Of a DNA stretch of 64,000 nucleotides, positions 1,086 to 60,783 are shown one piece after another. The notes beneath the pieces are model-generated. The model worked only from the letters and a program-made list of their open reading frames with translations, searched no databases and was not told the origin of the DNA. The translations under genes were made by a program, and so were the position numbers. Position 1 is the stretch's first letter, and each line of letters begins with the position of its first letter. Source of the stretch: Candidatus Aenigmatarchaeota archaeon (lineage in GTDB: Archaea; Aenigmatarchaeota; Aenigmatarchaeia; QMZP01); assembly GCA_043824495.1 (NCBI GenBank), contig JBDRSV010000005.1:7955-71954 (forward strand), written 5' to 3'.

Positions 1086-1108
1086 TTGGATGTGAAATTT
1101 AAATAATT
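1086..1108 (+). repeat. Left copy of an imperfect direct repeat bracketing GC-rich cassette 1 (TTGGATGTGAAATTTAAATAATT)
   Basis: Aligns by eye with 6800..6822 (TTGGATAGTGAATATTTCATAGT) at about 19 matches with 2 single-nt indels. It also contains the TTTAAAT box about 25 nt upstream of the mcm ATG. Confidence 0.4.
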
Positions 1109-1120
1109 CTTTCTGCCTAT

Positions 1121-1146
1121 ATATCCCTTTAAATTGACAATATAAA
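1121..1146 (+). repeat. Cassette 3'-flank motif, copy A: ATATCCCTTTAAATTGACAATATAAA
   Basis: One of four copies in the window, each 23/26 identical to this one. It lies between the last gene of cassette 1 and the mcm start. Confidence 0.85.
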
Positions 1147-1263
1147 ACACCTAAGAGTCTTGGTTACCTCATGGCCCTAAAGATATTCGACGATTGGACC
1201 TTGAATCCTTGCACATCTACATGTGTGCGTTATTCGCCGAAAAGTTCTTTTTGAGTGCATGGT

Positions 1264-1485
1264 CTAGAGAATCAGTACGAGAAGTCCTGATAACGCGGCA
1301 ATAATTTCGCACCAAAAGCCGACTATCAGGAATGAGATGGCGTCGCCTCTAATGACATACGCTGTAGAATAGTTCCTGATACAGACAGAACTCCGTGACT
1401 TTTTGTCTTCTCTTTTACCAAGAACCATGAAAACGAACCCGGCAAGCAAGAAGACTGCGATGCCGATCAATGCTACTATCTTCAT
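1264..1485 (-). CDS. small two-TM membrane protein (73 aa from MKIVALIG)
   Basis: ORF track 1264..1527. The start was moved to the ATG preceded by GAGAGGTGA. Two hydrophobic segments are present. Confidence 0.4.
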   Translation of the reverse strand: MKIVALIGIAVFLLAGFVFMVLGKREDKKSRSSVCIRNYSTAYVIRGDAISFLIVGFWCEIIAALSGLLVLIL

Positions 1486-1599
1486 TTCTTTCACCTCTCT
1501 TCGTTTCTCCCTTTCGTTCAAAACCAAAAGACGAGCGGATGTTTATCAACATCATATGGCATGTTTCAAGTGCCTAGAAACTCGTCGTGTTCTTTTCTT

Positions 1600-2463
1600 C
1601 TAGCGTTTTAGGAAGACCCACTCCTTGTCGCCGACAATGATCTTGTCGTTGTGGCTTAAAATGACACTTCCATCACGATCCACAGGGATTCCGTTGACCG
1701 TGATACCCGAACTTCCATTCATATTCCTGAAAATCCATTCATCAGCATCCCCATCCTTATTGACTCTCTTGAGGATTTGAGCATGGATTCCGCCGTCGTT
1801 GAGATCCCTGGTGTCACCAACTCCAATTTCCGAGCCCTTGATGTAGTAGTCGGTGCGGACGGTGAAGAAGTCATCGCCCTCCTGCATTAGCATCGGATTT
1901 ATCATGAGGCCCTTGTCCACACGGTCTAGGAACAGCTTCAGATCCGTGACCAACAGATGACATTTGAGATGTTGTAACATGTCGTAGAGGTCCTCGATTT
2001 CTACCCGGCTCATTAAGAGTGTCACTACCCTGTAGATTTCGGAAAATGTCACACTGTCCGATACCGCCATCTGAGAAACATCGTCGCGGCTGAGAGGTGT
2101 GGGTTCGGGCGTTATGAAAATTGTGTAGTCTCCGAATGAGAGGCAAGTCTCTTCGCCGCTCCGTACCCATATCCGATTCGAAATGATGTCGTGATTTCCG
2201 TTAATCCTCAGGTCAGGTATACAGTGGTCGATGGCTGCCAGACATGAGCCTGATGGGGTCACGAATATCTTGAACAACGGTGGTTCGATGGCGCTGTTAT
2301 GATCGCCTCTGGCGGCTTCTTCATCGAGCTTGACATCTTGGTTATGGATCATTCCATTTCCGCAGCCAATCCAGAGGAACTGCCCCCGACAGAGAGTCCT
2401 TTTTTCAGGAACCACATTCTCTCTTTTAAATCCTTTTCGAAGTACTCCAATTGTAAATATCAT
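1600..2463 (-). CDS. FHA-domain protein (C-terminal FHA, possible second N-terminal FHA-like domain)
   Basis: C-terminus reads GSEIGVGDTRDLNDGGIHAQI...NGSSGITVNGIPV...LSHNDKIIVGDKEWVF, which fits the FHA pattern. GGGAGG lies upstream of the ATG. Confidence 0.6.
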   Translation of the reverse strand: MIFTIGVLRKGFKRENVVPEKRTLCRGQFLWIGCGNGMIHNQDVKLDEEAARGDHNSAIEPPLFKIFVTPSGSCLAAIDHCIPDLRINGNHDIISNRIWVRSGEETCLSFGDYTIFITPEPTPLSRDDVSQMAVSDSVTFSEIYRVVTLLMSRVEIEDLYDMLQHLKCHLLVTDLKLFLDRVDKGLMINPMLMQEGDDFFTVRTDYYIKGSEIGVGDTRDLNDGGIHAQILKRVNKDGDADEWIFRNMNGSSGITVNGIPVDRDGSVILSHNDKIIVGDKEWVFLKR

Positions 2464-2521
2464 CTTTACAATTCCTCCCTATGAGATCCCCGATCCGTCG
2501 CCGGGGATCTCTGCCATTTCG

Positions 2522-3484
2522 TTAATTTGTCGGGAAACACGTATTCATTACTGTGTGAAGCCATCCTCCTCCATAGAGATAGTTTCCCACAAGAGTCAGG
2601 CCTCCGATGGCAGGCGGTGTAAGCTTTCTTCTCCACCTAGGATCATCGGGGTCCAGAGAGTTCAAGTGGCTCTCTCTGATGGCGTTCATGAGAATTTCTG
2701 CGCGGCCAGGAATGAGAGCGAGCCTACTCACGTCGGGAAGATATCTCTTTCCCGGGCCCATATCGGAGAAAGGAATGTCGGTATCGGCGGAGACTACAAG
2801 GTCGTGTTTCCACAAGACCTTGTCGAAGACCACTCCGAGAATACGCATGTTTCTGAGAGCATCTGTTATGTCAGTTTCGTCGTGGAGTTCGTGGAAGATA
2901 TGATCCTGAACTGTTCCTTTAACTGTGTCCGAATCTACATTTCCACCGATTCCCCAGCATGCACCAGGATACATTGGAGTTCCACTGCCCCGTCGAGTTA
3001 ATACAAACCCGTCCGGGCATTTGAGCCATAGTACTGGTGCGAGAGGACCTTGGGGTAAAGACATGTTCTCCCGGGTGAATAATTTGCGATACTCGGGTCG
3101 TTGCGTCGCCATGACCTCGGAGAACAACATCTTCTCGACATTGATGGTGGTCGAATTTAGTGGCCAGTTTGTCATCCGGTATTGGATACCGGGATACATA
3201 ATCGGTGTCCAGGAATCGGTTGTGGTCTTTCTTCCCCAGAGTCCATGATGGTGTTCTTCTTCAAAAGGACGGAAGTCCAGAAGAATTTCGCCCTCTGCAG
3301 TGAGCGCCTCAAACTTCGCCAGGACCATGCCGTTCCATATGCTGATCTCGTAAGGCGTCGCCAATTTGGGATACCTTGTCACATGTTCCTGACTGCCGTC
3401 AAACTTCACTATTGATGCAAACGGGACACCTGGTGCCGGCACAGCCCACCATGTAGTTGTCTGTATTTTCTCGGGTAGTTTCAT
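2522..3484 (-). CDS. hypothetical protein, possible degenerate Nudix-like C-terminal half
   Basis: 320-aa ORF in the cassette. The segment PGACWGIGGNVDSDTVKGTVQDHIFHELHDETDI loosely resembles a Nudix box but has the wrong spacing. Confidence 0.5.
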   Translation of the reverse strand: MKLPEKIQTTTWWAVPAPGVPFASIVKFDGSQEHVTRYPKLATPYEISIWNGMVLAKFEALTAEGEILLDFRPFEEEHHHGLWGRKTTTDSWTPIMYPGIQYRMTNWPLNSTTINVEKMLFSEVMATQRPEYRKLFTRENMSLPQGPLAPVLWLKCPDGFVLTRRGSGTPMYPGACWGIGGNVDSDTVKGTVQDHIFHELHDETDITDALRNMRILGVVFDKVLWKHDLVVSADTDIPFSDMGPGKRYLPDVSRLALIPGRAEILMNAIRESHLNSLDPDDPRWRRKLTPPAIGGLTLVGNYLYGGGWLHTVMNTCFPTN

Positions 3485-3507
3485 TCTCGATCTGCCTTTC
3501 TATGATT

Positions 3508-3777
3508 TCACTTCGCTGGCGTTTCGGATTGACTGCCACCGGGCTTAGGAGCGCCATTTGTTGCGATGCTCGCCGGCGATGGGAATGTTCCCTCATGTCC
3601 TCGTCTGAGAGCCGCGTCCAGAATTTCCAGGTGCTCTGACGATCTGTTTTTTGCGATCCATTCACGACATTGCGGGATCGCCGAAGCCTCGACCTGCGAT
3701 AGAATGATGTTGATCAGTTCACTTGCAGGGAGAGCCCCCTTATCCAGGAACTCTTCGAATGTCAGTGTCTTCAGCAT
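3508..3777 (-). CDS. hypothetical 89-aa protein resembling the C-terminal helical domain of the neighbouring FHA proteins
   Basis: GGAGGG SD is present. TFEEFLDKGALPASELINIILSQV...CREWIAKN resembles DTEEFTAMLASRASDEELVLRLLTRV...AAREWMIRI of ORF 5310..5978. Confidence 0.45.
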   Translation of the reverse strand: MLKTLTFEEFLDKGALPASELINIILSQVEASAIPQCREWIAKNRSSEHLEILDAALRRGHEGTFPSPASIATNGAPKPGGSQSETPAK

Positions 3778-3812
3778 TGCAATGCCCTCCAGAAATGTGT
3801 GGGGTGGTCGGA

Positions 3813-4505
3813 CTAGTATTGGGCCGGAGTTTCTATTGTTAGAAGTGTGTTGTACATTTCATCTGGTAGCTTGACATACATCAGGTCCTGAACTCTTTCT
3901 CTTAGGAACCTGACCTTAGGAGTAAGGTCAGTTCCCTTGTCCGACCAGAAGTCGTCTGGATCGAGACAGTTTATTCCGTTATTGATGATGAATTTCATGG
4001 ACCTGAAGAAAGCGTACCGGCTGTTATCTTCGATGAGATTTGCCAGGATGACTTCAGATTTCCAGTCATCTGCCGGAGACAGGACGGAAGTAGAATCCTG
4101 ATTTTCGTATTGCCGGTTGAGTTTATAGCATGTTTCGCTGAGAGTCCAAATGCTTTTCTTGAACTTTTTGGCGGTTCCTCGAATAACCAGTTCCACAACC
4201 TTCAGTGTGGTCTTCGACCCTTCTGACATGCCTTGTGGCATGACGTCTTTGAATTCTTCTTCGAACTGGTTCTTGTAATATCCGAGGCATTTGCTGAGCT
4301 TCGTTCTTGAGCTGTCCGGAAGCAATTCCATCAGGTCGTCGAATGTTTCCAGTACCTCGTCGGTGCGAACATCAACGGTCTGGGCATATGCCTTTTCCGT
4401 ACTCTGTTCCCATGCTGGATTCGGCTTGTCTCCGTCGCCACACGAGATCATGGTCGCGAAGATGATCACGAACAAGACGACCGAGATAGTTCTCTTTGTT
4501 TTCAT
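3813..4505 (-). CDS. bacterial-type lipoprotein (signal peptide plus lipobox)
   Basis: N-terminus MKTKRTISVVLFVIIFATMISCGDG has a lipobox-like MISC. GGAGG SD is present. Confidence 0.6.
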   Translation of the reverse strand: MKTKRTISVVLFVIIFATMISCGDGDKPNPAWEQSTEKAYAQTVDVRTDEVLETFDDLMELLPDSSRTKLSKCLGYYKNQFEEEFKDVMPQGMSEGSKTTLKVVELVIRGTAKKFKKSIWTLSETCYKLNRQYENQDSTSVLSPADDWKSEVILANLIEDNSRYAFFRSMKFIINNGINCLDPDDFWSDKGTDLTPKVRFLRERVQDLMYVKLPDEMYNTLLTIETPAQY

Positions 4506-4609
4506 GTTGCTAACCTCCGTAAACGTGATACAATTCAGTTAATTTCGGTTTCCGACTATCCGAGGTGCATCGGACTTGCACTCGGATTTCTGCATGGAAC
4601 CGCCACGCG

Positions 4610-5179
4610 TCATTCAGGTCGGGATTTGGTGATCTCTTTCAGGATCAGTTCCGTCATTTTGACTTTCCTGGCATGGCTTCTGATTATGGCAACTCGCTCG
4701 TAGATCGGGATTATCTTCCGTGCAGTGTCAGGATGATACTTGCAGAGAAATCCGATGCAAGCAATAACATCATCCTGCAACACTTGTGAGAAAATCATGA
4801 GAGCGAGACGTTCTCCGGAAACTGATCCCTTTGCCAGAGATTCGAACTCGTCCTTGTCGATGAGGGCACGGAACTCGAATTTCAGTTTCCCGGTTGTCAC
4901 GACATCGCCGTTTAGTATTGTACAATCGGCCGAGCCGCATGGCTTGCCATTGATGAATGTCAAGTTTCCCGATGTTTCGTCGTGGATGCATAACTCGTCG
5001 TTGGTCAGTTTGATACTGAAATGTGTATCCTTGAGTCCGAATTTTCCACCTTCTGGTATCGACCATTCGGATTCTGTGGATGTCCCAAAACGTACCGATG
5101 TATCCGGAACTAGATGTAAAGTGGCCTTTCCTTCTTTCGCTCCGGACCAGCGTACTTCTAGAAAGCTCCCCATTGCCAT
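4610..5179 (-). CDS. FHA-domain protein, paralogue of 5310..5978
   Basis: The start was moved to MAMGSFLEVRW (GGAGGG SD), which parallels MAMGRYLNVTW of the neighbour. FHA pattern: FGTSTESEWSIP...HFSI...IHDETSGNLTFINGKP. Confidence 0.6.
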   Translation of the reverse strand: MAMGSFLEVRWSGAKEGKATLHLVPDTSVRFGTSTESEWSIPEGGKFGLKDTHFSIKLTNDELCIHDETSGNLTFINGKPCGSADCTILNGDVVTTGKLKFEFRALIDKDEFESLAKGSVSGERLALMIFSQVLQDDVIACIGFLCKYHPDTARKIIPIYERVAIIRSHARKVKMTELILKEITKSRPE

Positions 5180-5309
5180 GCCCTCCTTCGGTGGTATGTG
5201 TAGTGTTTCATTAACTTTTGTTTTAGTTTCCGGCGAACCCGTAACATTGGAATTGCCCGGGTTTTCTACTGGAACCATCAGCGTCATTCAGGCCGGTTCA
5301 TGTTACCGG

Positions 5310-5978
5310 TCAGTCAGATCCCAGAGTGGATAGATCGTCGTCACCTATGTCTCTTGCTAACGCTCTCTCCGATTTAATTGGGGTCGGAGTACGATCCGCC
5401 GCTTTTTGGATAGCGAGATCTGTCTTATTGATAATGTCGGCACGCGTGATCGCGTTCCCTTCGTGTAAAATGGAGGATGCACGTTCTACGATTCGAATCA
5501 TCCATTCCCGTGCAGCTTGTGGCCTCTTCTCACACAAGACATCAAGACAACTGGGGAAGTCTTGTGTTCTCACTCTTGTGAGAAGTCTGAGAACCAGTTC
5601 TTCGTCACTGGCTCGGCTGGCTAACATGGCAGTGAATTCTTCCGTATCGTAGAGAACATCGAACCAGATTCTGAGTTCTCCGATGCGAATCACGCTTATA
5701 TTGTAGACGTACGTCCCACCGGACTGGACTTTTTCCTCATCCACGAAAGTGCCCGCGTTGGTTCCCAGATCATGGATCCTTAGACACTCGCCGTCATTGG
5801 CCATTGTGATCGAGAAGTGTCTGCCTTTGAAGTCTTCCTCATCAGCCGGAATCAGGAAATCGTCCCCTTCGGATTCCCCGAACACAAGTGTTTGATTCCG
5901 ATCAATTGGAATCATGTTCTCGTCTGCTGATGATGTCCCCTCTGTCCATGTTACATTTAGATAACGTCCCATTGCCAT
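5310..5978 (-). CDS. FHA-domain protein with C-terminal helical domain
   Basis: FGESEGDDFLIP...GRHFSI...IHDLGTNAGTFVDEEKV fits the FHA pattern. GGAGG SD is present. Confidence 0.65.
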   Translation of the reverse strand: MAMGRYLNVTWTEGTSSADENMIPIDRNQTLVFGESEGDDFLIPADEEDFKGRHFSITMANDGECLRIHDLGTNAGTFVDEEKVQSGGTYVYNISVIRIGELRIWFDVLYDTEEFTAMLASRASDEELVLRLLTRVRTQDFPSCLDVLCEKRPQAAREWMIRIVERASSILHEGNAITRADIINKTDLAIQKAADRTPTPIKSERALARDIGDDDLSTLGSD

Positions 5979-6053
5979 GTCCTCCTTCAGATAGATAGCT
6001 ATATTTCAGTTGCCTTCGTTTCAGTGATTAGTTCTTCTATACTTTTCGAATGC

Positions 6054-6596
6054 CTAACCGAAAATTTTACGTGCCATTCCTCGAGCCTCGCGATTTGAGA
6101 GAATAGCTCCCAGTAAAGCAGTTGTCACACACGCCAAGAACGTTAAGACAATTGGATAATAGAGGCTCGTGTTCCATGCAAACATGGGATCACCTGAAGA
6201 ACCTGATCCTACGAAGAGCCAGATGATCCAGAAAATCGCGATCCATGTCAGCCAATTGATGTAGGCAATGTAGATACCCTCACCCAGAAGAAATCTGACA
6301 TAGCCTTCTGGGATAGATGATTCCGACCAATCTCTTTTGAGCATATGTCCTCTCAGTCTATAGAGACGGAATGTTGTGAGAGGTATCATCAGGCTGCAGA
6401 GTTCGATGTAAACTCGTGTCATTTGTAGTTGTCCTGATGTCTCTTGTTCTATCAAGAGATTGCCCAATAGTGCCGCGGGAATGACGATCACCCAGAAATG
6501 CCAGGTGAATCTATCTTTGTTCGAGCGATGTACTAATAGGAAAACCATGGCCAGAACAAGAGAAAAGATTGAGATGAAGATTATGAAGTTGAACAT
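6054..6596 (-). CDS. multi-pass membrane protein, unknown function
   Basis: 180-aa ORF with about 5 hydrophobic helices. AGGAAG SD is present. It is the first gene of cassette 1. Confidence 0.55.
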   Translation of the reverse strand: MFNFIIFISIFSLVLAMVFLLVHRSNKDRFTWHFWVIVIPAALLGNLLIEQETSGQLQMTRVYIELCSLMIPLTTFRLYRLRGHMLKRDWSESSIPEGYVRFLLGEGIYIAYINWLTWIAIFWIIWLFVGSGSSGDPMFAWNTSLYYPIVLTFLACVTTALLGAILSNREARGMARKIFG

Positions 6597-6674
6597 TTTA
6601 TATCTTCCTCGGATAGAGTTCTGTCGGTATACCTCAGACTATGTAAAACACCATACAGAAGTCATTTGATATGA

Positions 6675-6785
6675 CTATTGTTCTGTGTGGTGTTGGTTCC
6701 TAGGTTACAATGCCAATATATCTGCAAGGAAATTTTCCTCAAAGATGTCTAAAGTCAATTGGCGTGAAAGTGTGGAGCATGATAT
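6675..6785 (-). repeat. Cassette 5'-leader module, copy 1 (read on minus strand: ATATCATGCTCCACACTTTCACGCCAATTGAC ... hairpin ... TTGGCATTGTAACCTAGGAACCAACACCACACAG)
   Basis: The core TCATGCTCCACA/TTCACGCCA matches 39325..39359 at 21 identities with 1 mismatch and 1 indel. The downstream TTGGC..GTA..TAGG..CAAC block is also shared. Confidence 0.7.
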
Positions 6786-6799
6786 TTTGACTATTACTA

Positions 6800-6822: not shown

Positions 6823-6873
6823 AAACTTTATATTATTTAGCATTGAGAGTCGTAACAGTAAATATAGAAATTT

Positions 6874-6936
6874 ATAGAAATTACTTGATTTTCAATAGAA
6901 TTTACTTGATTCTAAATAGAAATTACTTAGAATTAT
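6874..6936. repeat. Three tandem 21-nt repeats (ATAGAAATTACTTGATTTTCA-like)
   Basis: Copies start at 6874, 6895 and 6916 with period 21, and there is a partial copy just upstream. The array lies between cassette 1 and the 3' end of gene 6933..7658. Confidence 0.7.
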
Positions 6937-7658: not shown

Positions 7659-7839
7659 ATTGGGTAATAATTGTATATGAACTAATTAATGTTTTGCGTA
7701 ACTACCGCCAATCACGAGGGAGGGCAAACCTTTATATACCATAGATTTAATTTATAAGATACCCATAAAACGATCGCAGTGAGACGGCTATATAATCTAG
7801 CATCTAGCTTGTTTAGTGATCATGTACGGAGGTAATCGT

Positions 7840-8073
7840 ATGGCAGACGTAGATTTCAAAACTGTAAAAGCTGAAGAAATTAAATTCGGTAAGAACAACT
7901 TCCTTGAAGTTGCAAGGAAAAAGGCTGTTACCGAAGAGGGTGAGACTGAATTCATTGCAATATCAAGAGGATTTTTCTCACCAGATGGATCCAAAAGATT
8001 CAAGAAGTCAATTGCACTTCCTGATGAAAAGGAAATCCGCGATTTCGTATCCAAAAAAATATTAGAACTGTAA
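7840..8073 (+). CDS. small PC4/YdbC-like ssDNA-binding-fold protein (tentative)
   Basis: The start was moved to MADVDFKTV (GGAGGT SD). The pattern FGKNNFLEVARKK...EFIAISRGFFSPDGSKRFKKSIALP resembles PC4-like proteins. Confidence 0.45.
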   Translation: MADVDFKTVKAEEIKFGKNNFLEVARKKAVTEEGETEFIAISRGFFSPDGSKRFKKSIALPDEKEIRDFVSKKILEL

Positions 8074-8212
8074 AAACAACAAAATTGGTTAATACAAGAG
8101 ATGATGAAGAACACGCTGCGAAGCTGACTTAGTCTCTGTTTTTCTTATTATTTTTCCTGTATCACATGTAGCTATTTATTGCAGTGTTCATAAGAATTAA
8201 CATAGTGATTTT

Positions 8213-13262: not shown

Positions 13263-13370
13263 TATCATATTCCACTCTCAAAAAATCTACAATTTGTATC
13301 AGATAAACAAAGCGTTTAATCTGAAAATGTCTTCATGGACCCATAAATCAACGCACACAAAACACGAAAT
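13263..13370 (+). repeat. Cassette 5'-leader module, degenerate copy 2
   Basis: TATCATATTCCACTCTCA resembles TATCATGCTCCACACTTTCA. It is followed by the hairpin CAGATAAAC-aaagc-GTTTAATCTG and a CAACGCACACAAAAC block resembling CAACACCACACAGAAC of copy 1. Confidence 0.45.
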
Positions 13371-13522
13371 AACACAAAGTGCATTGTTAGCTTAAGCTAT
13401 GGAGAATGAGAAGCCTGAGAGTGATTTTTTCTGTCTTCTGTAAAGAAATTACCAGACTTTTGTCTTAGACGAGAGTCTTTCGCCAATAGAAAAAAATGAT
13501 TCATTGATATGGGGGGTGAACA

Positions 13523-14353
13523 ATGATATCGTGTAAATCAAAACAGGTGGATTCAACACGGCTTGACGCTAGGCCGAAAAAGCGACGAATGCCAGTTCAG
13601 GTCTCGCGTGCCTGGGATGCGTATTTCAGCTCCGGCGACCCTGGTGTTCGTCAGAACCTTCTCAATCATTACCTGCCGCTCGTATGCAATGTGGCGGGTA
13701 GGATGGCTCTAGGCTTTCCCAAAGCTGTTGAGCTGAATGATTTGATTTCCACAGGCACGATCGGCTTGTGCCAGTCCTTAAAGAACTTCGATCCTAAACG
13801 AGGCGTCAAGTTCGAAACCTTTGCGGTTCCCCGAATCCGTGGTGCAATTCTCGACGAGATGCGCAGCTTGGATTGGGTGCCGCGTTCCACACGCTCGAAA
13901 GCACGTAAGATTGATCGAGTCACAACTCAGATCGAACAACAACAGGGACGTGTGTCAATGCATAATGAACTCGCTGTCCTTCTGAAGATCCCGCTGGACG
14001 ATCTGCTAGTGGTGCTGACAGATATTTCGGCATCAAGGCTTATGTCCTTGGATGAATTGGTATATCGAGAGGAGGACAATAGGCAGGTTCCGAGAGTCGA
14101 GACACTCGAACTTCCTGTGAGAAGAGATGCCTTGAGAGAGGTCGAACGCAGAGAGCTAAAGGTATTCCTCATTAACGCCATTTCTACTCTCAACGAGCAA
14201 GAGACACATGTCATTGGCTTATACTACTACGATGAGCTTACCATTCGTGAGATTGGCGAACTCATGAATCTCTCGGAATCCCGAATCTCGCAGGTTCACA
14301 CTAGGTCTGTGGAAAAGTTGCGAAGAATGGTGCGCGATAGATTCGGATACTGA
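13523..14353 (+). CDS. fliA: bacterial FliA/WhiG-type (sigma-28) RNA polymerase sigma factor
   Basis: Region 2 reads LNHYLPLVCNVAGRM...DLISTGTIGLCQSLKNFDPKRGVKFETFAVPRIRGAILDEMR. Region 4 reads LNEQETHVIGLYYYDELTIREIGELMNLSESRISQVHTRSVEKLR. GGGGGGTGA SD is present. Confidence 0.85.
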   Translation: MISCKSKQVDSTRLDARPKKRRMPVQVSRAWDAYFSSGDPGVRQNLLNHYLPLVCNVAGRMALGFPKAVELNDLISTGTIGLCQSLKNFDPKRGVKFETFAVPRIRGAILDEMRSLDWVPRSTRSKARKIDRVTTQIEQQQGRVSMHNELAVLLKIPLDDLLVVLTDISASRLMSLDELVYREEDNRQVPRVETLELPVRRDALREVERRELKVFLINAISTLNEQETHVIGLYYYDELTIREIGELMNLSESRISQVHTRSVEKLRRMVRDRFGY

Positions 14354-14443
14354 ACAACCAACTGTAAATAACGACGCTCATGCCGGGTTTTGTCCGGGCG
14401 GAGAAAGAAAATACAAATGAGAACGAATGGATAAGGAGGGCAA

Positions 14444-14620
14444 ATGCTCCTATGTCAGGAGTGTCACCAAAAACGGGGATGTTATTGGGGTATTCACCCA
14501 CACACTACCAATGGGTCTTGTGGTTGTTGTGGTACGCAAACAGCTTGCGTCGAATGTAATACCCTAGAAACATCTTCACGTCCGATCTCTATGGAAGCCA
14601 CCGAGAATTTCATCGGCTAA
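14444..14620 (+). CDS. 58-aa cysteine-rich protein (not in ORF track, below its length cutoff)
   Basis: AAGGAGGG lies 4 nt before the ATG. Translation MLLCQECHQKRGCYWGIHPHTTNGSCGCCGTQTACVECNTLETSS... contains 9 Cys. Its position right after a sigma gene suggests a zinc-binding partner or anti-sigma factor, which is inference only. Confidence 0.45.
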   Translation: MLLCQECHQKRGCYWGIHPHTTNGSCGCCGTQTACVECNTLETSSRPISMEATENFIG

Positions 14621-14643
14621 GAAATACCAAGCTCGAGAATCAT

Positions 14644-14670
14644 GTGTGTCCCATAACACACTTGGTTCTT
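14644..14670 (+). terminator. hairpin GTGTGT-cccata-ACACAC followed by a T-rich tract
   Basis: A 6-bp perfect stem lies immediately after the last cassette-2 ORF and runs into TTGGTTCTTTATATT. Confidence 0.4.
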
Positions 14671-14694
14671 TATATTGTCTAATTAGAGGGATAT
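14669..14694 (-). repeat. Cassette 3'-flank motif, copy B (reverse complement: ATATCCCTCTAATTAGACAATATAAA)
   Basis: 23/26 identical to copy A. It ends 2 nt before the ATG of backbone ORF 14697. Confidence 0.85.
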
Positions 14695-39324: not shown

Positions 39325-39430
39325 ATTCATCATGCTCCACAATTCACGCCATTTAAGTCTTTTGACTGATTATTACCAAAATATCTGGTAATAGTTTGGC
39401 TTTTGTATTTTAGGTAAAACAACGGAAGAC
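39325..39430 (+). repeat. Cassette 5'-leader module, copy 3 (ATTCATCATGCTCCACAATTCACGCCATTTAAGTC ... hairpin ATTACCA-aaatatc-TGGTAAT ... TTTGGCTTTTGTATTTTAGGTAAAACAACGG)
   Basis: See 6675..6785. The conserved blocks have the same 37-nt spacing, and that interval holds a different inverted repeat in each copy. Confidence 0.7.
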
Positions 39431-39487
39431 TACTAAAGTCTTCACATCATAGAGAAACGCTTAGTTTTGAGAATATGGGGGTGTGAA

Positions 39488-39832
39488 ATGCGTACAGAAA
39501 CATTATGGACAGGCATGATCTCCGAAGAATATGGTTTCAGATGTGGTCCAGTTCCAGAGATCTATGAATTCAAAGTGACAAGAGAAGGAGGAATCTGCTT
39601 CGTCCAACAGAACAAGGGACCAACTGGACTCGTGACACTAAACGTAGAACCTATTACAGGGAAAGTCAAACTCAAGACAGGGGATGTTATTGAGACTCCG
39701 GACAAATGGGTAAGGTACGTCTTACAGGAACATCAATCGGCAGTGGGAATCGAGATCCCTGTCCGTCAGGACCTCGAAGAAATAGACCCTGAAGACGATC
39801 TTCGTACCTTACCAACACCAGGCTGGTTCTGA
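39488..39832 (+). CDS. hypothetical protein
   Basis: The start was moved to the ATG preceded by GGGGGTG. 114 aa. Confidence 0.5.
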   Translation: MRTETLWTGMISEEYGFRCGPVPEIYEFKVTREGGICFVQQNKGPTGLVTLNVEPITGKVKLKTGDVIETPDKWVRYVLQEHQSAVGIEIPVRQDLEEIDPEDDLRTLPTPGWF

Positions 39833-39904
39833 GTTTGGTGTAAACTGGGAGAGCAGAGGGAAAGCAAATTATAGATGAATTTGAACCAGTAAAGGAGTAC
39901 AACC

Positions 39905-40489
39905 ATGCCGTTCAAGATTATCCTAGTTGATGGAGACGGTGCCGGAGTGAGCGGTGTCGATATCCAACTCAATTTCCATGGTGTAAAGCCGGATGAAAGA
40001 TTCACAGTAGGCACAACTGACGCAAACGGTGAGTTGGAACTGGCAGTCACCACCGTTGACGATGTAGAACTGAAGAGCGCAATCTTTGATATCTCGTTGG
40101 ACGGTGAGAATTTCATGGAATGCGCGACCTTCACCTACGTTCCTGGTGAATCTCTGAAACTGAGTAAAATTCCAGTTTCAATGGCCACTTCGCCAGACAG
40201 TTTCCAAGTTCTGATCTTACAGGAAAACGACAATACACCAGTAGAAGGTGCAAGTGTCGCGATGCTCAAGGGAGGCAAGGTCGTTTGGAGCACACTGACA
40301 AGTGAGCATGGCCTCGCAACCATAGACAACGCGCAAACCGAAAAATGTGAGTTGTGGGTCCAAGGTTCTCTCGTTAAGATCCGTGATGAACTCCATGATG
40401 ACAGAGGAACCATTCGCATTGTTCATGTGGGCGAGCCCGATGGAACTACATGGGCACTTGTCACAGGGATCGATGCCGACGAAGAATAA
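39905..40489 (+). CDS. hypothetical protein with two beta-sandwich-like (carboxypeptidase-regulatory/PEGA-like) repeats, paralogue A
   Basis: AAGGAGTACAACC-ATG leader. The pattern VDGDGAGVSGVDIQL....TTDANGELEL recurs. Confidence 0.55.
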   Translation: MPFKIILVDGDGAGVSGVDIQLNFHGVKPDERFTVGTTDANGELELAVTTVDDVELKSAIFDISLDGENFMECATFTYVPGESLKLSKIPVSMATSPDSFQVLILQENDNTPVEGASVAMLKGGKVVWSTLTSEHGLATIDNAQTEKCELWVQGSLVKIRDELHDDRGTIRIVHVGEPDGTTWALVTGIDADEE

Positions 40490-40563
40490 TCATATGTCCT
40501 ACGACAAAGAATTCATTGAATGGGAGTTATAATCACACCCCACTAACCAGAAGGAGTACACCC

Positions 40564-41196
40564 ATGTACAGAGTTTCGTTAGGGAGGGATGGAGTTAAAG
40601 TTGAGCTCGATTGCTCCAAAACAACACCGGACACCGGAACCGCTGAAGCCGTCACGACTGCGAATGGCGGCGTCGCCGAGTTTCAGGTCACCGTGAATGG
40701 AACCGAAATTGACGGCGAATTAATCACATTGAAGCTGAACGGCGCCGAATTTGCGGACGGAGCGCAGTTCACTTACACACCCGGTGAAATCCTGGAACTT
40801 CATGAGGTTCCTGCTGTCACAGTGACATCACCCGCAGAATTCCGTGTCCGGGTTCTGAGGGTAGCGACAGATGCCGAAACGGTTCCAGTACCTGTGCAGG
40901 ACGTATCTGTTCTGATCACCGAGTCAGATAGCAGCAAAATTCTCCTGAACACACGGACGGACGCCAGGGGATTTGCTATTATGGTAGAACCAACCGGTGA
41001 AGAGATCAGGATCTTTGTCGACGGTGTGGATCTTGATATCGATCCTCCCTACGGTGACGCAGGAACCGTTCACGTCGTGTTCGTGGACGATGTCGACGAG
41101 GGGACCAACTGGGTTCTCACAACCCCGCTTGGTGTCAAGGTCGAGGATGCCGGCGACTTAGCCGACAAAACCAAAGAAGTGTCGCAGCAGTCGTAA
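40564..41196 (+). CDS. paralogue B of 39905..40489
   Basis: The start was moved to MYRVSLGRDG behind a nearly identical AAGGAGTACACCC-ATG leader. It is colinear with paralogue A: FTY(V/T)PGE.L.L..(I/V)P, then a second repeat ending T.W.L(V/T)T. Confidence 0.55.
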   Translation: MYRVSLGRDGVKVELDCSKTTPDTGTAEAVTTANGGVAEFQVTVNGTEIDGELITLKLNGAEFADGAQFTYTPGEILELHEVPAVTVTSPAEFRVRVLRVATDAETVPVPVQDVSVLITESDSSKILLNTRTDARGFAIMVEPTGEEIRIFVDGVDLDIDPPYGDAGTVHVVFVDDVDEGTNWVLTTPLGVKVEDAGDLADKTKEVSQQS

Positions 41197-41269
41197 TTCA
41201 CGGCGACACCACACAAACTCGTGCCGGGGATGGGTTCATGCCTGTCCTCGGCTCCTGAAGGAGATGAAC

Positions 41270-41434
41270 ATGGGATTCTGGTTAAGATCTGCTGATGATG
41301 GTTCAGAAGGTCTTTCGGTTCTCGAGATAGTGGGAGTTGCTATCATCGCTGGAATCGTGTTGGTGGCAGCTATTAGTGTGCCTATTATCATTTTTTCCCC
41401 TAAGATCAATAATCAGAGAAACAAAACCATATGA
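41270..41434 (+). CDS. 54-aa Flp/Fap-pilin-like small hydrophobic protein (tentative)
   Basis: AGGAG SD is present. In MGFWLRSADDGSEGLSVLEIVGVAIIAGIVLVAAISVPIII..., the G-x4-E followed by a hydrophobic helix resembles Flp prepilins. Confidence 0.35.
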   Translation: MGFWLRSADDGSEGLSVLEIVGVAIIAGIVLVAAISVPIIIFSPKINNQRNKTI

Positions 41435-41460
41435 GAAGATGTGAATTTTGCTCTGATTGT

Positions 41461-41486
41461 TTTATATTGTCTACTTAAAGGGATAA
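41461..41486 (-). repeat. Cassette 3'-flank motif, copy C (reverse complement: TTATCCCTTTAAGTAGACAATATAAA)
   Basis: 23/26 identical to copy A. It lies 49 nt upstream of tRNA-Ser. Confidence 0.85.
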
Positions 41487-54577: not shown

Positions 54578-54687
54578 TACTATCTTTAATATGTAGTGTT
54601 GTATTTTTGATAATCATTTATGTGAGAAAATGTGTGTACTGTTGTTATATTGGATATACTTTTAACTCCTTTTACTAAGTCTTCTAT

Positions 54688-54951
54688 ATGCATTGTGATA
54701 AATGTAAGAAAACAGTAACTCAGGCAGTATTTAATTATTCTGTAGCGAAATATGAAAAAACTCTATGTATGAGTTGTCAAAGAGTGTATACAACTGTAAC
54801 ACGTAAGGTCGTTGGGGATAAGAGTAAAGAAGTTGGAGAAGATCTACATTGCGATAAATGTAAGAAAAATGTGAGTCAAGCAGTGTATGATTATTCTAAA
54901 AAGAGACATGAAAGAGCTCTATGCATGAACTGTCAAAAAAGGGTTAAGTAA
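54688..54951 (+). CDS. tandem double zinc-ribbon protein
   Basis: The two halves are HCDKCKKTVTQAVFNYSVAKYEKTLCMSCQR and HCDKCKKNVSQAVYDYSKKRHERALCMNCQKR. Confidence 0.5.
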   Translation: MHCDKCKKTVTQAVFNYSVAKYEKTLCMSCQRVYTTVTRKVVGDKSKEVGEDLHCDKCKKNVSQAVYDYSKKRHERALCMNCQKRVK

Positions 54952-57081: not shown

Positions 57082-57088
57082 TAACAGA

Positions 57089-57110
57089 AAGATTTATATT
57101 GGTTTTAAGA
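57089..57110 (+). repeat. Left direct repeat bracketing cassette 4: AAGATTTATATTGGTTTTAAGA
   Basis: Eighteen consecutive nt are identical to 60761..60778. After a 1-nt indel, AAGA matches again. Confidence 0.75.
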
Positions 57111-57153
57111 CGCGTTTCTATTCATTGTTTTCTTATTAGAAAATCTTGAACAT

Positions 57154-57179
57154 ATATCCCTTTTATTTGACAATACAAA
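57154..57179 (+). repeat. Cassette 3'-flank motif, copy D: ATATCCCTTTTATTTGACAATACAAA
   Basis: 23/26 identical to copy A. It lies 72 nt from the start of backbone gene 54985..57081. Confidence 0.85.
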
Positions 57180-57213
57180 GGGGATGGTCCATCACTGTAG
57201 ACCATTAATCCCC
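57180..57213 (-). terminator. stem-loop immediately after the FadB-like stop codon
   Basis: GGGG-ATGGTC-catcactgta-GACCAT-taat-CCCC. On the transcribed strand it is followed by TTTGTATT, the start of the 3' motif. Confidence 0.45.
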
Positions 57214-57218
57214 ATAAG

Positions 57219-59303
57219 TCAGACTTTCATGACTTTGTCGCATTCACGTCCGACGCGTCCACCTCGGCATACTTCGGATATCATGAAATGAGCAGAATGA
57301 TCTGCTTGGCGAGATATGGAATCGTTCAAATTACATCCACACGCTTCTTGTATACAGTTCATGATAGCCTTTCTTGCAAATTCCGTGCTAGCATTGTCAG
57401 TGTCTGGCAGGTTAGTGATACTCAGTGGCACATCTGTCAGGCGGTCAGTCTTCAGATTTCTTTCCGTGAGACCATGATCACCGCCCGTAGCAACCTTCCA
57501 TGCCATTTCAAGCGCACGTGTCATCGGAGCAGCGTGGTCGATCAGCCATCCCACAGCCTCGGATGCATCAATAGAATGTCCACTCAAGAGCATGTAGATG
57601 ATTTTAGGCCAATCAGTTCTACGTGCCTTGCGAAATGGCCAGTGGCATCCTTCCATGCCAGGGACAACCGGAAGCGTCACCTCTGGCATGCCGAGCTTTG
57701 CATCATTAACTGAAATCAGAAAGTGACAATGCATGAGAAGCTCAAGCATACCACCTAGACAGCGCTTGCCATTGACAAACCCAACGGATACCTTGAACTT
57801 ATCATTGAGCCTTCTGGCTGTACGAGACCACTGCATGGATATTCTGTGTCCAGTATGTACATTCTCAAGCGCAGGATAGAACTCGCTTGTGTCCGCGCCG
57901 ACTAGCTGAGTGGAGAGATGGAAGTCGCCGGAGACAATCACGCGTTCGATTCCTTCGGCTTTCAGCCAATCAATGGCTCGGTTGAGTTCAGCGTCGACAT
58001 CGCTGTTGTAACTCTCGCGACTTATGGCGATGACACCAACTGTTCCATCATGTTCTGCGTTGACGTACAACTGCTGCCATTCTGGTGTGTCCATATGACC
58101 AAAGACACTCGGACACCAGCAGACGCTCGCTGCTTCTGGATGTGACAGGTGATAAGATTCCACGGTCCTGATCACATTATCCGGACCAAGTCCACGAATG
58201 ACAGCGAGTATACCGTGATTGAACTGAGCACAGAGTTCACCGATGGCGTTGATGTGGGAGAGATGGCCGCGATTTTCATGAAGCATGAGACTGGTCATTT
58301 GGAACAGAGGACCGAGAATCCATGTTTTGAACTCGTCAACTCCGGCTGTATCCAAACTCCAGTTCACAAGAGGACGGAAGTGATCTGGTGGATACCAGTC
58401 TTGTCTACTTTCCTTATGTTCCATCAACTCAGGAGTTGGCGCGAACAATTCAGCACCATAATGCTCATGTAAGTGGTGGAGACATGACCAGGTAAGGAAG
58501 TTCGCACCAGCCGCACCGATCGCGTCATGCGCTCGGAACGGGTTCGGACCAAGCAACTTGCGGATAAATTTGTCGATCTTCCAGTAGGGCATGTTGCTGG
58601 CCTGGTGATAACGCAATCCGGCGAGCGTCAGGCCGCAGAACAAGACATCGAGAACAAACGACCATTTGTCAGCAACAGGAATCGGGATCATACCCAAAGC
58701 CCAGAAGAGCTTATCGGTAGATGTGTCATCTCCCACAGTCTCCCACACTTTGCTGACCTCATGTGGGAATGCCGGATGTGCGATGCCAACTCCCAGTTCT
58801 GAACTTGGGAATCCCGAGGTTACGGATCTGATGTGGATACCCGGGAATGCTGCTCTGAAGAGACCGTAGTGATCCTTCTTGACACTGAGAATCTCTGGAA
58901 TTGCTTCCAACAGAAATTTCGGATTGAATTGGCCGAGTTCACCTGGAAGAGTAGTTCCGTCATAACTCATACGGATAATACTCCTCATGATCTCATCAGC
59001 CTTTGACCTACCAAAGGCGCGTACCAATCCTGGGTACTGTCTCCCAATGCCATCAGGTGCACTGGGGAAATCTAGTCCGATGATACGAACACCGTGTGGT
59101 TGAAGCCGGGAACCGAGTTGCATTGTCTTGCCAGCACCAACAATTCCATTGGCGCCGGAGATGACAAGTGATCCTCGATTACTTGCTTTACCAAACACAT
59201 TCGAAACTGCATCGGATGCAGTGACAGGTAATCCATTCTTGAAGATCCCGAGAACAGTTCCGAGACCCAATGTTTGGATTGTTGAAGTTCTCATCATTTT
59301 CAT
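57219..59303 (-). CDS. fusion protein: N-terminal 3-hydroxyacyl-CoA dehydrogenase-like, C-terminal enoyl-CoA hydratase/crotonase-like
   Basis: It has the Rossmann motif ISGANGIVGAGKT and the C-terminal crotonase pattern CLGGMLELLMHCHFLISVNDAKLGMPEVTLPVVPGMEG. Confidence 0.75.
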   Translation of the reverse strand: MKMMRTSTIQTLGLGTVLGIFKNGLPVTASDAVSNVFGKASNRGSLVISGANGIVGAGKTMQLGSRLQPHGVRIIGLDFPSAPDGIGRQYPGLVRAFGRSKADEIMRSIIRMSYDGTTLPGELGQFNPKFLLEAIPEILSVKKDHYGLFRAAFPGIHIRSVTSGFPSSELGVGIAHPAFPHEVSKVWETVGDDTSTDKLFWALGMIPIPVADKWSFVLDVLFCGLTLAGLRYHQASNMPYWKIDKFIRKLLGPNPFRAHDAIGAAGANFLTWSCLHHLHEHYGAELFAPTPELMEHKESRQDWYPPDHFRPLVNWSLDTAGVDEFKTWILGPLFQMTSLMLHENRGHLSHINAIGELCAQFNHGILAVIRGLGPDNVIRTVESYHLSHPEAASVCWCPSVFGHMDTPEWQQLYVNAEHDGTVGVIAISRESYNSDVDAELNRAIDWLKAEGIERVIVSGDFHLSTQLVGADTSEFYPALENVHTGHRISMQWSRTARRLNDKFKVSVGFVNGKRCLGGMLELLMHCHFLISVNDAKLGMPEVTLPVVPGMEGCHWPFRKARRTDWPKIIYMLLSGHSIDASEAVGWLIDHAAPMTRALEMAWKVATGGDHGLTERNLKTDRLTDVPLSITNLPDTDNASTEFARKAIMNCIQEACGCNLNDSISRQADHSAHFMISEVCRGGRVGRECDKVMKV

Positions 59304-60505
59304 TTGCCACTGCTCCCTTCATCAACCTTGAAGATCGCCGCTATACCAACATCACCGGCAGCACAACCGAAGATGAGAACATATCCGCCACCGAGCGAGA
59401 CCGCCTCTACAAAGGATTCAATCAGAACTCTCGTAAGAGTCGGTCCTTGCGGATGACCCCATACAAGCGGGCAGCCGGTTTTGTTCATGTTGTGCCAGTC
59501 GTAGTCCATGACCTTCGCGAAGATGGCGTCGTTGACTGCGAACGGATTGTGGTTTTTCACCACGATCATATCAGCCATTGTCAGTCCGGTGCGGCGCAGA
59601 AGTTTTTGTACCGCCAACGCAGGTGCTTCGGGCATGAGACTCGGATGCGCGCGTACTTCGGTTTTTGCGATAAAGGTAATATCGATCTCTGGTTGCGAAC
59701 TGAAGTCTGAAACTCTCTCCTTGTTCACAACCAGTAGGCACGCCATGCCGTCAGATGCATGTGTCTGTGTGCCGGTGGTCACGCAGGTATCGAGTTCGAA
59801 AAGGCGGTTCAATCCATCCATCGTCAGCTTGCGGACGCCGAAATCGTCGTCGATTGTTCCCATGGGCTTGCCCTGGAGATTGAGGATTTCGAGCGGGACA
59901 AGCACCTTGTCGAGAAAGCCAGATTCTTTGGCTTGAAAATACTGCTCATGCCGATGGAAGGCGATCTCGTCCACTTCTTTACGGTTGATCTTGTGCTTCC
60001 TTGCGGCCTCTCCTCCGCAAGCAATCATTGCTTTTCCGGTTGCCGGATCGAAACCAAAGTTGTCCCATACATCGGCGAGTGCTTCTGTCCGACGATAACT
60101 GCGACGCTCTGGGAAGACACCAGCCGGAGAGTCACTTGTCCGGTCGAATGTCAGAACGCCGACGACATCGTGCGAACCACTGTTCACCTCTGCACCCGCA
60201 AGGAGCACTGCCTGTAGACCTGTAGCACATGCCTGTTCAACGTGGAATCCTGGGATTCGAATTCCCATACAACTGGCCACCAACGGGGCATTCCAGAATT
60301 TCCAGTGCCACGGGATAGTTGATCCGATGACAAGGTACTCGAGCAGACTCTTGGGCACTTTCCTTAACCCAAGAATCCTGTTCATTGCTTCCCCGGCGAA
60401 CTGGCCTGGATTGACCTCCGCCAGGGGTGAAGTTTGCCAGGCAGGGAAATAACTACTCCCCCAAGTCCCGTATGGGATCCTGGCATTTGGGTACATCGGT
60501 TGCAT
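59300..60505 (-). CDS. thiolase-family acyl-CoA acetyltransferase
   Basis: The active-site Cys context is HVEQACATGLQAV and the C-terminus carries GCAAGDVG. The SD is GGAAGGAGAGGG. Confidence 0.75.
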   Translation of the reverse strand: MQPMYPNARIPYGTWGSSYFPAWQTSPLAEVNPGQFAGEAMNRILGLRKVPKSLLEYLVIGSTIPWHWKFWNAPLVASCMGIRIPGFHVEQACATGLQAVLLAGAEVNSGSHDVVGVLTFDRTSDSPAGVFPERRSYRRTEALADVWDNFGFDPATGKAMIACGGEAARKHKINRKEVDEIAFHRHEQYFQAKESGFLDKVLVPLEILNLQGKPMGTIDDDFGVRKLTMDGLNRLFELDTCVTTGTQTHASDGMACLLVVNKERVSDFSSQPEIDITFIAKTEVRAHPSLMPEAPALAVQKLLRRTGLTMADMIVVKNHNPFAVNDAIFAKVMDYDWHNMNKTGCPLVWGHPQGPTLTRVLIESFVEAVSLGGGYVLIFGCAAGDVGIAAIFKVDEGSSGK

Positions 60506-60566
60506 AAACCCTCTCCTTCCGTAGAAAAAGACCTAAACAAAACTAACATCAATTTGTCTGTCGTTT

Positions 60567-60675
60567 ACGTATGATGTCGATTCCTAAGATGCAGTACCAA
60601 TTCCAGTATCGAACAGATGTCGACAATAGTCAGCGTCAGCTGATTGGCAATTATATTGTTTTGGGAAGCATGAAT
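60567..60675 (-). repeat. Cassette 5'-leader module, degenerate copy 4
   Basis: On the minus strand, ATTCATGCTTCCC...GCCAAT resembles ATATCATGCTCCACA...GCCAAT. CTTAGGAATCGACATCATACG matches CCTAGGAACCAACACCACACAG of copy 1 at about 15/21. Confidence 0.45.
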
Positions 60676-60760
60676 GCGAAGATATTACTTTCTATATAAC
60701 TAAAATTTATAAAACCAAAAAACTCGCTATAACAATTTATAATTGATAGAAAATTTTAAG

Positions 60761-60783
60761 AAGATTTATATTGGTTTTTAAGA
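60761..60783 (+). repeat. Right direct repeat bracketing cassette 4: AAGATTTATATTGGTTTTTAAGA
   Basis: See 57089..57110. Confidence 0.75.

Follow-up and report, generated by a model that had tools for sequence, protein, structure and literature searches.

Integron cassettes are small units that lack a recombinase of their own, carry unrelated accessory cargo, including toxin-antitoxin pairs, and end, on the 3' side of the cargo, in a recombination-type site with a stem-loop of variable sequence. By way of such cassettes bacterial genes can enter archaea, and the enzyme presumably acts in trans. Much the same holds for the family of cassettes proposed here from four G+C-rich blocks of genes, which lie in a 64,000-nt stretch of the genome of a Candidatus (Ca.) Aenigmatarchaeota archaeon (assembly GCA_043824495.1, contig JBDRSV010000005.1, positions 7,955-71,954 of the forward strand; the whole stretch is called the window below). 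Each block ends in an invariant 24-nt sequence, TTRTATTGTCWANTWARAGGGATA, termed the 3' box. On balance, Ca. Aenigmatarchaeota probably has a family of flank-defined gene cassettes of its own, presumably moved in trans, of which the four blocks are members.

The blocks differ from integron cassettes in lacking R''/R' boxes, an array and an attI/intI platform. They have a promoter of their own and a conserved 5' box, carry up to eight genes or tRNAs, and what they conserve is a 24-nt box after the stem-loop rather than the base of the stem itself. Four clustered attC sites with no integrase have been reported in GCA_017609145.1, a metagenome-assembled genome (MAG), and the diversity of attC sites in Aenigmatarchaeota was found to be restricted (Ghaly et al. 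2022, PMC9668308). That MAG also contains a 3' box (locus L002), situated on a different contig.

The blocks could be ordinary integron cassettes, with single attC sites or integrase-less attC clusters of the kind reported for the order QMZP01. The attC cluster in the MAG of L002 speaks for this, as do the position of the 3' site and the types of cargo (a toxin-antitoxin pair, small open reading frames (ORFs), a Nudix protein). However, a search for the R-box pattern RYYYAAC...GTTRRRY with a complementarity filter found no pair within 180 nt of the 22 cassette ends known from this and other genomes, and none in the window. The cassettes are dispersed singly (the window copies are 7-40 kb apart), show no 5' box within 90 nt after any 3' box, have their own promoters and up to eight genes, and no intI was found. 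The first-pass annotation of this DNA had held that the blocks are not an integron array, and the integron explanation is indeed very unlikely.

Xer-dependent modules (the integrative mobile elements exploiting Xer, IMEX, and the pdif modules of Acinetobacter plasmids) resemble the blocks in having no recombinase in cis and a short dyad core with one degenerate arm; like them, the blocks would rely on a housekeeping recombinase encoded elsewhere. A Xer module has a 28-bp site with an 11-6-11 organization at each end, whereas the box of the cassettes is on the 3' side only. Its dyad arms are 9-10 nt long, its spacer is 5-7 nt, and it is centred on a base.

Organization and composition of the four blocks

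The four cassettes of the window are as follows.

B1, 1122..6782, minus strand: 5.66 kb, 48% G+C, from 5' box to 3' box; eight one-stranded ORFs (a 180-aa membrane protein, two FHA paralogues, a lipobox protein, an 89-aa ORF, a 320-aa protein of a rare family, a 287-aa protein with a C-terminal FHA domain and a 76-aa membrane peptide)
B1 5' box, 6771..6782, minus strand: TCATGCTCCACA followed by CTTTCACGCCA; a host-type TATA box, AATATAAAG, lies ~45 nt upstream and AATAGTAATA 9 nt upstream
B1 3' box, 1122..1146, minus strand: TTTATATTGTCAATTTAAAGGGATA; mcm, with its own TATA box, starts ~47 nt downstream
B2, 13265..14693, plus strand: 1.43 kb; weak 5' box TCATATTCCACT (13265-13276), 246-nt leader, FliA/WhiG sigma-28 gene (13523-14353), small Cys-rich ORF (14445-14621), stem-loop, 3' box (14669-14693)
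B3, 39330..41485, plus strand: 2.16 kb; 5' box (39330-39341), 114-121-aa ORF, paralogue pair of 194 and 248 aa (Ig/MG-like), 56-aa type-IV-pilin-like peptide (41271-41441), 3' box (41461-41485); tRNA-Ser starts 50 nt downstream
B4, 57155..60673, minus strand: 3.52 kb; 5' box TCATGCTTCCCA (60662-60673), 156-nt leader, thiolase (59300-60505), 694-aa protein with a C-terminal enoyl-CoA hydratase domain (57219-59303), 13-bp stem-loop, 3' box (57155-57179)

Measured in steps of 500 nt, the G+C content is 0.44-0.55 in the blocks and 0.29-0.40 elsewhere, with sharp transitions that delimit high-G+C stretches at ~1150-6790, 13270-14694, 39330-41486 and 57155-60680. Overall the blocks have ~46-51% G+C, compared to a mean of ~35% for the window. 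The G+C content at third codon positions (GC3) ranges from 0.43 to 0.58 over 13 cassette genes and from 0.18 to 0.34 over 15 backbone genes, or ~0.5 and ~0.27 overall. When relative synonymous codon usage was compared, the two halves of the backbone were found to correlate with r = 0.97 and the cassettes with the backbone with r = -0.06 to 0.28. The cassettes correlate with one another with r = 0.28-0.70, and with donor-like bacteria with r of at most 0.36.

All ORFs of a block are on the same strand, and the thiolase gene of B4 overlaps the next gene by 4 nt (59300-59303). Shine-Dalgarno matches of at least 4 nt precede 13 of 16 cassette genes as against 9 of 35 backbone genes, most of which are leaderless and start ~25 nt past a TATA box. 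These measurements are in agreement with the first-pass annotation, which had described four G+C-rich, one-stranded and tightly packed blocks in an AT-rich backbone, with a Shine-Dalgarno box before nearly every block gene.

Host genome and integrity of the assembly

The backbone is assigned to Ca. Aenigmatarchaeota from its closest housekeeping relatives and from synteny. The best named matches of its glutamyl-tRNA synthetase (GluRS) are Aenigmatarchaeota MAGs, at identities of up to 57%, and window positions 6933-13155 are syntenic with a locus, L019, of one such MAG. The backbone also carries MC1, GatDE and an intein-containing MCM. The mcm gene, downstream of B1 (window 1-1077, minus strand, continuing past the window start), encodes a protein of 1207 aa in which the intein has a LAGLIDADG homing-endonuclease domain (Pfam).

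Sharp steps in composition are also what would be expected had bacterial fragments been fused to an archaeal contig by chimeric assembly or a binning artefact, and a sample search found the organism in no sample other than SRR26275509. Nevertheless, separately built Logan contigs of this run hold all four blocks in the same gene context, and the archaeal genes that border the blocks on either side keep their order in another Aenigmatarchaeota MAG. The 3' box was found in no bacterial genome in a scan of 185,579 species genomes, the codon usage of the cassettes is intermediate and not that of donor-like bacteria, and a like architecture is present in eight other assemblies. Chimerism of the assembly is therefore unlikely to underlie the blocks, and an artefactual joining of bacterial and archaeal sequence can hardly be credited.

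The 3' box

The 3' boxes of all four cassettes fit the 25-nt pattern TTTRTATTGTCWANTWARAGGGATA. The window has exactly four copies of it, one at the 3' end of each block and oriented like the block (chance expectation 0.01). The conserved motif reported earlier at the block ends is thus real, and the window copies are confined to block ends; it is not a promoter element common to ordinary backbone genes. A relaxed 24-nt pattern was then used to scan one genome per species of the 185,579 species. It matched 18 loci, where ~1 would be expected by chance. All of them come from nine MAGs of archaea; seven of these MAGs, obtained from the Black Sea, Lac Pavin and other sites, bear the name Ca. Aenigmatarchaeota, and the other two are labelled only "uncultured archaeon". 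One Black Sea MAG has seven copies. The box is restricted to this lineage, and the genome-wide search proposed in the first-pass annotation places it always 3' of variable cargo. A viral origin was rejected for want of any match in IMG/VR, and a CRISPR repeat was rejected because every matching stretch has a single copy.

The 22 sites (four in the window and 18 at other loci) were aligned. Downstream of the box nothing is conserved past T/A-A. Immediately 5' of it is a pyrimidine-rich tract, preceded in most copies by a stem-loop of variable sequence; the mean folding energy of the 47 nt before the box is -12.0 kcal/mol, compared to -8.2 kcal/mol in controls (p = 0.001). Ahead of the box in the low-G+C Black Sea MAG are segments with sharp borders and 45-55% G+C, no shorter than 0.25 kb and up to 1.6 kb long, whose ORFs are led by Shine-Dalgarno sequences, so that here, too, cargo of foreign composition is found in a low-G+C host. 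Nine loci have an ORF of 90 aa or more upstream of the box; it is co-oriented with the box, and its stop codon is 28-70 nt before it. Elsewhere the cargo closest to the box is a small ORF or a tRNA.

The cassettes range in size from 430 nt to 5.7 kb. Outside the window their cargo includes a HicAB pair (L004), a Nudix protein (L016), a HisI-like protein and many small membrane or zinc-ribbon ORFs. No sequence common to different cassettes was found in DNA, nor in protein except for paralogues within a cassette, consistent with the earlier description of the four blocks as functionally unrelated. The only known RNA families in the cassettes are tRNAs, and PADLOC found no defence systems in the cargo of B1, B3 and B4.

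The gene that follows the box is co-oriented with it at all four window blocks, as previously noted. This does not extend to the other loci, about half of which have a convergent gene in this position. Between 3 and 74 nt separate the box from the next gene, and in the window mcm, tRNA-Ser and the secreted-protein gene keep their own TATA boxes downstream of the box. Because the orientation of the next gene varies and the upstream cargo is co-oriented, the box belongs to the 3' end of the cargo and not to a downstream promoter. A promoter function was also rejected on account of the variable distance and of a G at position 3 in half of the copies, which does not suit a TATA box. The box contains ~36 bits of information at non-homologous sites of genomes whose GluRS are only 57% identical, and therefore appears to spread by copying rather than by repeated origin.

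The box has a partial dyad about T8. All 22 copies allow G7-C9 and T1-A15 to pair, and 18 of them T5-A11 and T(-1)-A17; the three bases 5' of the box, opposite the invariant GGG, are C in about half of the copies. The arms (CCCTTTATA / TWARAGGG) are separated by a variable spacer; the right arm does not vary, and the outer left arm is degenerate. Judged from the alignment, the geometry is that of a tyrosine-recombinase core, and of the hybrid sites left after recombination.

Degenerate second copies of the box occur at L004 and L010, 351 and 534 nt up- or downstream of the main copy and on the same strand. They retain the right arm and bracket the HicAB genes (L004) and a small zinc-ribbon ORF (L010). 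Directly 5' of the degenerate box that precedes the HicAB cassette (L004 2058-2160, minus strand) are tandem 10-nt repeats, three of ATTCCCGCAG followed by GAATACGCGCA and GAATCGCGCA. The zinc-ribbon gene of L010 (7296-7586) is antisense to the two boxes between which it lies, and a homologous gene is beside a 3' box in a second MAG (L012 7802-7990). Both encode small zinc-ribbon, helix-turn-helix-like proteins (WRMRFS...SRWT..CW), with only weak, transposase-HTH-like Pfam matches. This protein is a possible accessory factor.

The 5' box and the promoter region

The 5' box, TCATGCTCCACA, marks the 5' end of 12 of the 23 cassettes. In the window the module TCATGCTCCACA(N)TTCACGCCA is identical in B1 and B3 and matches at 9 of 12 positions in B4 and 8 of 12 in B2. 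The first-pass annotation had described a related leader module at the start of all four blocks; the box itself stands, identical or weaker, whereas the leaders show no conservation. Elsewhere, the 5' box or a near variant is found 0.4-1.1 kb before the 3' box at L005 (perfect), L016, L006, L015, L009, L011 and L019 (in two places). Four other MAGs have the 5' box in this position. It begins with TC in 11 of 12 copies and is preceded by AWAGTAAYA in five cassettes. It is situated 20-45 nt downstream of a canonical B recognition element (BRE)/TATA box and would sit near the transcript start.

Two other repeated elements were noted. Three direct repeats, AAGTAA(A)TTCTAT, occupy a spacer of 22% G+C between the nucleoside triphosphate (NTP)-transferase gene and the B1 promoter (6840-6935). 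A promoter-like element of the BRE/TATA type, GATAGAAAGATTTAAAA...ACTTTT, is upstream of several backbone genes (51957-51994, 52584-52636, 57069-57106 and 60741-60783); two of its copies flank B4, and it differs from the cassette boxes.

The main rival to the cassette interpretation is that the boxes are transcription or RNA-processing signals. As a 5'-UTR element, a terminator or an insulator, they would be bound or processed by a lineage-specific factor that punctuates transcription units, tRNA operons among them; they would not be recombination sites, and the foreign DNA would have arrived by other means. The BRE/TATA 20-45 nt upstream of the 5' box fits such a role, and so do the terminator-like combination of a stem-loop with the T-rich start of the 3' box and the position of that box 30-70 nt past the last stop codon, whatever the direction of the next gene. 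Two further points in its favour are the tRNA cargo of L011 and L015 and the host-like composition of the cassette at L019. However, ~20 invariant positions across distant genomes exceed what a terminator or operator needs and imply copying, and in the window neither box is used by any of the ~60 backbone genes, only by the four foreign blocks. Punctuation of transcription units is an unlikely explanation.

Origin of the cargo

The FliA/WhiG protein of B2 scores 233.9 bits against a cut-off of 189.6 (NCBIfam TIGR02479), contains Pfam sigma-70 regions 2, 3 and 4, and is ~70% identical to Zixibacteria FliA. Those relatives whose context was checked are all in flagellar operons (flhA, two further genes, fliA, other genes), and the named ones are Zixibacteria. 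Since the homology to the cassette is limited to the coding sequence (66.6% nucleotide identity) and the relatives are inside operons, a single gene was lifted from an operon and given a new 246-nt leader.

The thiolase of B4 is 86% identical in amino acid sequence to proteins encoded on contigs of 59% G+C, in a genome that is apparently bacterial and has the same order of thiolase and second gene. The DNA homology, 72.8% over 2.9 kb, extends from the start codon on, and the 156-nt leader is unrelated. More distant matches are from Zixibacteria, Gemmatimonadota, Marinimicrobia and Latescibacterota. By homology, then, fliA and the thiolase/FadB-like pair show bacterial ancestry (Zixibacteria-like, within the Fibrobacteres-Chlorobi-Bacteroidetes (FCB) group) and were cut at gene boundaries. 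The GC3 of the bacterial relatives is 0.75-0.78, compared to intermediate values of 0.53, 0.58 and 0.49 in the cassette copies. The cassettes of this genome carry recently acquired genes of foreign composition.

The family of the 320-aa protein of B1 is rare, comprising 27 clusters among 1.8 billion representatives, and one member, 39% identical, is from another Aenigmatarchaeota MAG. Because of this relative the view that all cargo is bacterial is unsupported: the first-pass annotation, which had judged the cargo bacterial, was right about fliA and the thiolase pair and, at least in part, wrong about B1. It had named as an alternative that the cassette ORFs are closest to related archaea; an archaeal relative was found for this one B1 gene, and fliA and the thiolase pair match bacteria. 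The intermediate codon usage shared by the cassettes suggests a common pool of cassettes of ~50% G+C circulating among Aenigmatarchaeota. Given the relative of the B1 protein and the mutual likeness in codon usage, such a pool would fit better than an all-bacterial cargo.

Some backbone genes have a bacterial flavour as well. An AT-rich ORF of 365 aa beside B4 (61229-62326, plus strand) has a sub-threshold NCBIfam match to sigma-70/extracytoplasmic function sigma factors (26 bits against 42.9) and no Pfam match; it may be an older, compositionally adapted bacterial import. Genes for a lysyl-phosphatidylglycerol synthase C-terminal domain (25437-26537) and a SurA-like peptidyl-prolyl isomerase (44665-45747) have the full backbone composition and no adjacent box, and are candidates for older imports.

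Occupancy of syntenic loci

The order NTP-transferase, 105-aa ORF, GluRS, 694-aa protein is shared by L019 and window positions 6933-13155, and one slot is empty in the window.

Unoccupied slot (gene-order level), 8115..8212, no strand: 98-nt gap between the 105-aa ORF and GluRS, where L019 has a 0.96-kb cassette

The L019 unit consists of the 5'-box-like sequence TCATGATCATAG, a HAD-like gene and a 3' box. Just after NTP-transferase, in the slot that B1 occupies in the window, L019 also carries the 5' box ATCATACTCACCAATTCAC, with AATAGTAACA ahead of it; the L019 sequence covers 70 nt beyond this box. At L013 a 3' box is 23 nt after gatD and faces it, and in the window gatD and gatE are adjacent. 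As far as gene order can show between genomes 57-61% identical in housekeeping proteins, syntenic slots are thus differently occupied in different genomes. A supposed breakpoint between gatD and gatE in the Black Sea MAG was discarded, the gene at L011 being 26% identical to GatE and possibly not its orthologue.

Empty sites were also sought in Joint Genome Institute (JGI) metagenomes by means of GluRS. Only distant relatives were found, at most 32% identical over most of the protein; one match of 40% spans ~110 residues. Two GluRS relatives, L076 and L077, have no box and too little synteny. The end of the L077 contig just upstream of GluRS (positions 1-30) is a Nextera adapter, CTGTCTCTTATACACATCT. 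The insert-free alleles that the first-pass annotation had suggested looking for in sister genomes are seen as differences in slot occupancy (L019), not as empty alleles at the nucleotide level.

Recombinase search and comparison with other mobile elements

No window gene has a Pfam match to an integrase, transposase, Cas1 or reverse transcriptase, as the first-pass annotation had reported, and no recombinase is among the matches listed (25 of 104 Pfam families) for 115 flanking ORFs at the 18 other loci. Neither a terminal inverted repeat nor, at 10 defined junction pairs, a target duplication was found. With unrelated ends in addition, the cassettes are not insertion sequences (IS) or transposons, again as stated earlier. 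The analogy then drawn to Pack-type elements fails, since these require terminal inverted repeats and target duplications.

Helitrons, IS91/ISCR and Pack-type elements do resemble the cassettes in being non-autonomous and singly dispersed, with variable cargo, and Helitrons further in their asymmetric ends, 3' subterminal hairpin and lack of target duplication. The cassettes might accordingly be non-autonomous single-strand or rolling-circle elements (Helitron/IS91, or IS200/IS605 palindrome-associated transposable elements, PATE) or IS110-like (DEDD) elements, which acquire cargo by read-through and are served by an HUH or DEDD enzyme in trans. Their dissimilar ends, strict orientation, varying cargo size, 5' TC and 3' hairpin before a conserved terminus are all compatible with this. 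Moreover, if the 3' box (TTTATATT) were joined to the 5' box, a TATA would be placed ~27 nt ahead, like the junction promoters of circular IS. Nevertheless, the hairpin, although enriched, differs in sequence in every copy, whereas Y1 transposases need conserved hairpins. The cassette terminus is GGGATA, not CTRR. No Rep, helicase, TnpA, TnpB or DEDD gene was seen in the window or among the matches listed for the 18 loci. Capture is not ragged: it sets in exactly at the start codon, respects gene boundaries and leaves whole operons intact. An origin of this type is quite improbable.

Archaeal islands integrated at tRNA genes (SSV-type, pTN3-type) come to mind because B3 ends 50 nt before tRNA-Ser and the L015 box abuts tRNA-Met. 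Unlike such islands, the cassettes have no integrase, and they are bordered by the two boxes and not bracketed by a duplication of the tRNA 3' end. The first-pass annotation had set the blocks apart from tRNA-targeting islands, and in these respects correctly; what it had not described is an att-like tRNA duplication adjoining B3. Of tRNA-Ser, the 3' part with the variable arm, the T arm and the acceptor strand (41577-41623) recurs at 85% identity 2.6 kb downstream (44209-44255), without the 5' half. ARAGORN and Rfam do not recognize this repeat as a tRNA. Between the two copies is an AT-rich segment with a Fic gene and a PMT_2-like glycosyltransferase, and the copies look like the att duplication of an old tRNA-integrated element without its integrase.

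No paper describing this box or the cassette architecture was found in the literature.

Proposed mechanism

Read from 5' to 3', those cassettes that have a 5' box begin with a host-type BRE/TATA in AT-rich DNA, followed by the box TCATGCTCCACA. All cassettes then have a non-conserved leader, one to eight genes led by Shine-Dalgarno sequences, or tRNAs, usually a stem-loop with a pyrimidine tract, and last the box TTRTATTGTCWANTWARAGGGATA. The 3' box may serve a site-specific recombinase, probably a tyrosine recombinase, as its core site; the enzyme, encoded elsewhere, would insert or exchange cassettes in trans. Bacterial genes would first enter the cassette pool of ~50% G+C and reach AT-rich genomes later.

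Several observations weigh against the cassettes being mobile in this way. No second copy of the 3' box is present in the left flank (position weight matrix test against AT-rich controls, p = 0.92), which led to rejection of an attL/attR model with a degenerate left-flank box; a gapped look-alike is found there only in the HAD cassette of L019. A 5' box within 90 nt after a 3' box, as expected of a tandem, occurs at none of the 22 sites. A simple two-site model is disfavoured by the lack of a left-flank box and of such 3'-then-5' tandems, together with that of target duplications and terminal inverted repeats. Of 22 cases, 10 lack the 5' box; it is missing at eight loci, among them clear cassettes of the Black Sea MAG, so that the 3' box is the defining feature. 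The genes of the L019 cassette are of host-like composition, and the tRNA cargo (tRNA-Met in L015, four tRNAs in L011) is possibly the host's own. To these must be added the lack of a recombinase match among the window genes and the Aenigmatarchaeota relative of the B1 protein. Finally, no nucleotide-level empty allele, circular junction or identical cassette at two sites was found.

The first-pass annotation had proposed a trans-mobilised family of flank-defined, cargo-variable cassettes. The shared flanks, the variable cargo and the lack of a recombinase in cis are as it described; for movement the evidence consists of the gene-order comparisons, and mobility in trans is the best inference.

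Other features of the backbone

Some further features of the backbone were noted.

30712-32781, plus strand: 689-aa protein with three tandem DsbA/thioredoxin domains; its DNA consists of three ~600-nt repeats with 67-77% identity
29004-29191: short in-frame repeats with periods of 12 and 21 nt (AAGAGAAGAACG and similar); the encoded stretch would be of low complexity and rich in Glu and Lys
54686-54937: two 96-nt copies, 77% identical and 156 nt apart, each a CxxC...CxxC zinc-ribbon module, in one small ORF
39087-39249: mini zinc-ribbon ORF just upstream of B3

Implications

The DPANN archaea have tiny genomes, yet carry many bacterial genes. To our knowledge, the route by which these genes enter has not been established. 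It is conceivable, though doubtful at present, that the cassettes represent a new class of mobile "expression cassettes" in DPANN, extending from promoter to terminator, moved in trans and giving bacterial genes, even one for a sigma factor, their main way into these reduced genomes. In that case the two boxes, the 3' one with its dyad, would have no features in common with attC, IS or att sites.

A cassette boundary defined by sequence gives a direct handle on the entry of genes into DPANN. It allows the cassettes to be listed in all Aenigmatarchaeota genomes and bacterial imports, Zixibacteria-like and others of the FCB group, to be dated and traced. It also allows the enzyme to be sought by its co-occurrence with the box, and recombination to be tested in vitro. 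The intact bacterial sigma-28 gene in an archaeon raises the question of whether it is functional there or only in transit. If the proposed reading of the cassettes is true, recombinase-less gene capture would be widened beyond integrons and Xer-dependent modules.

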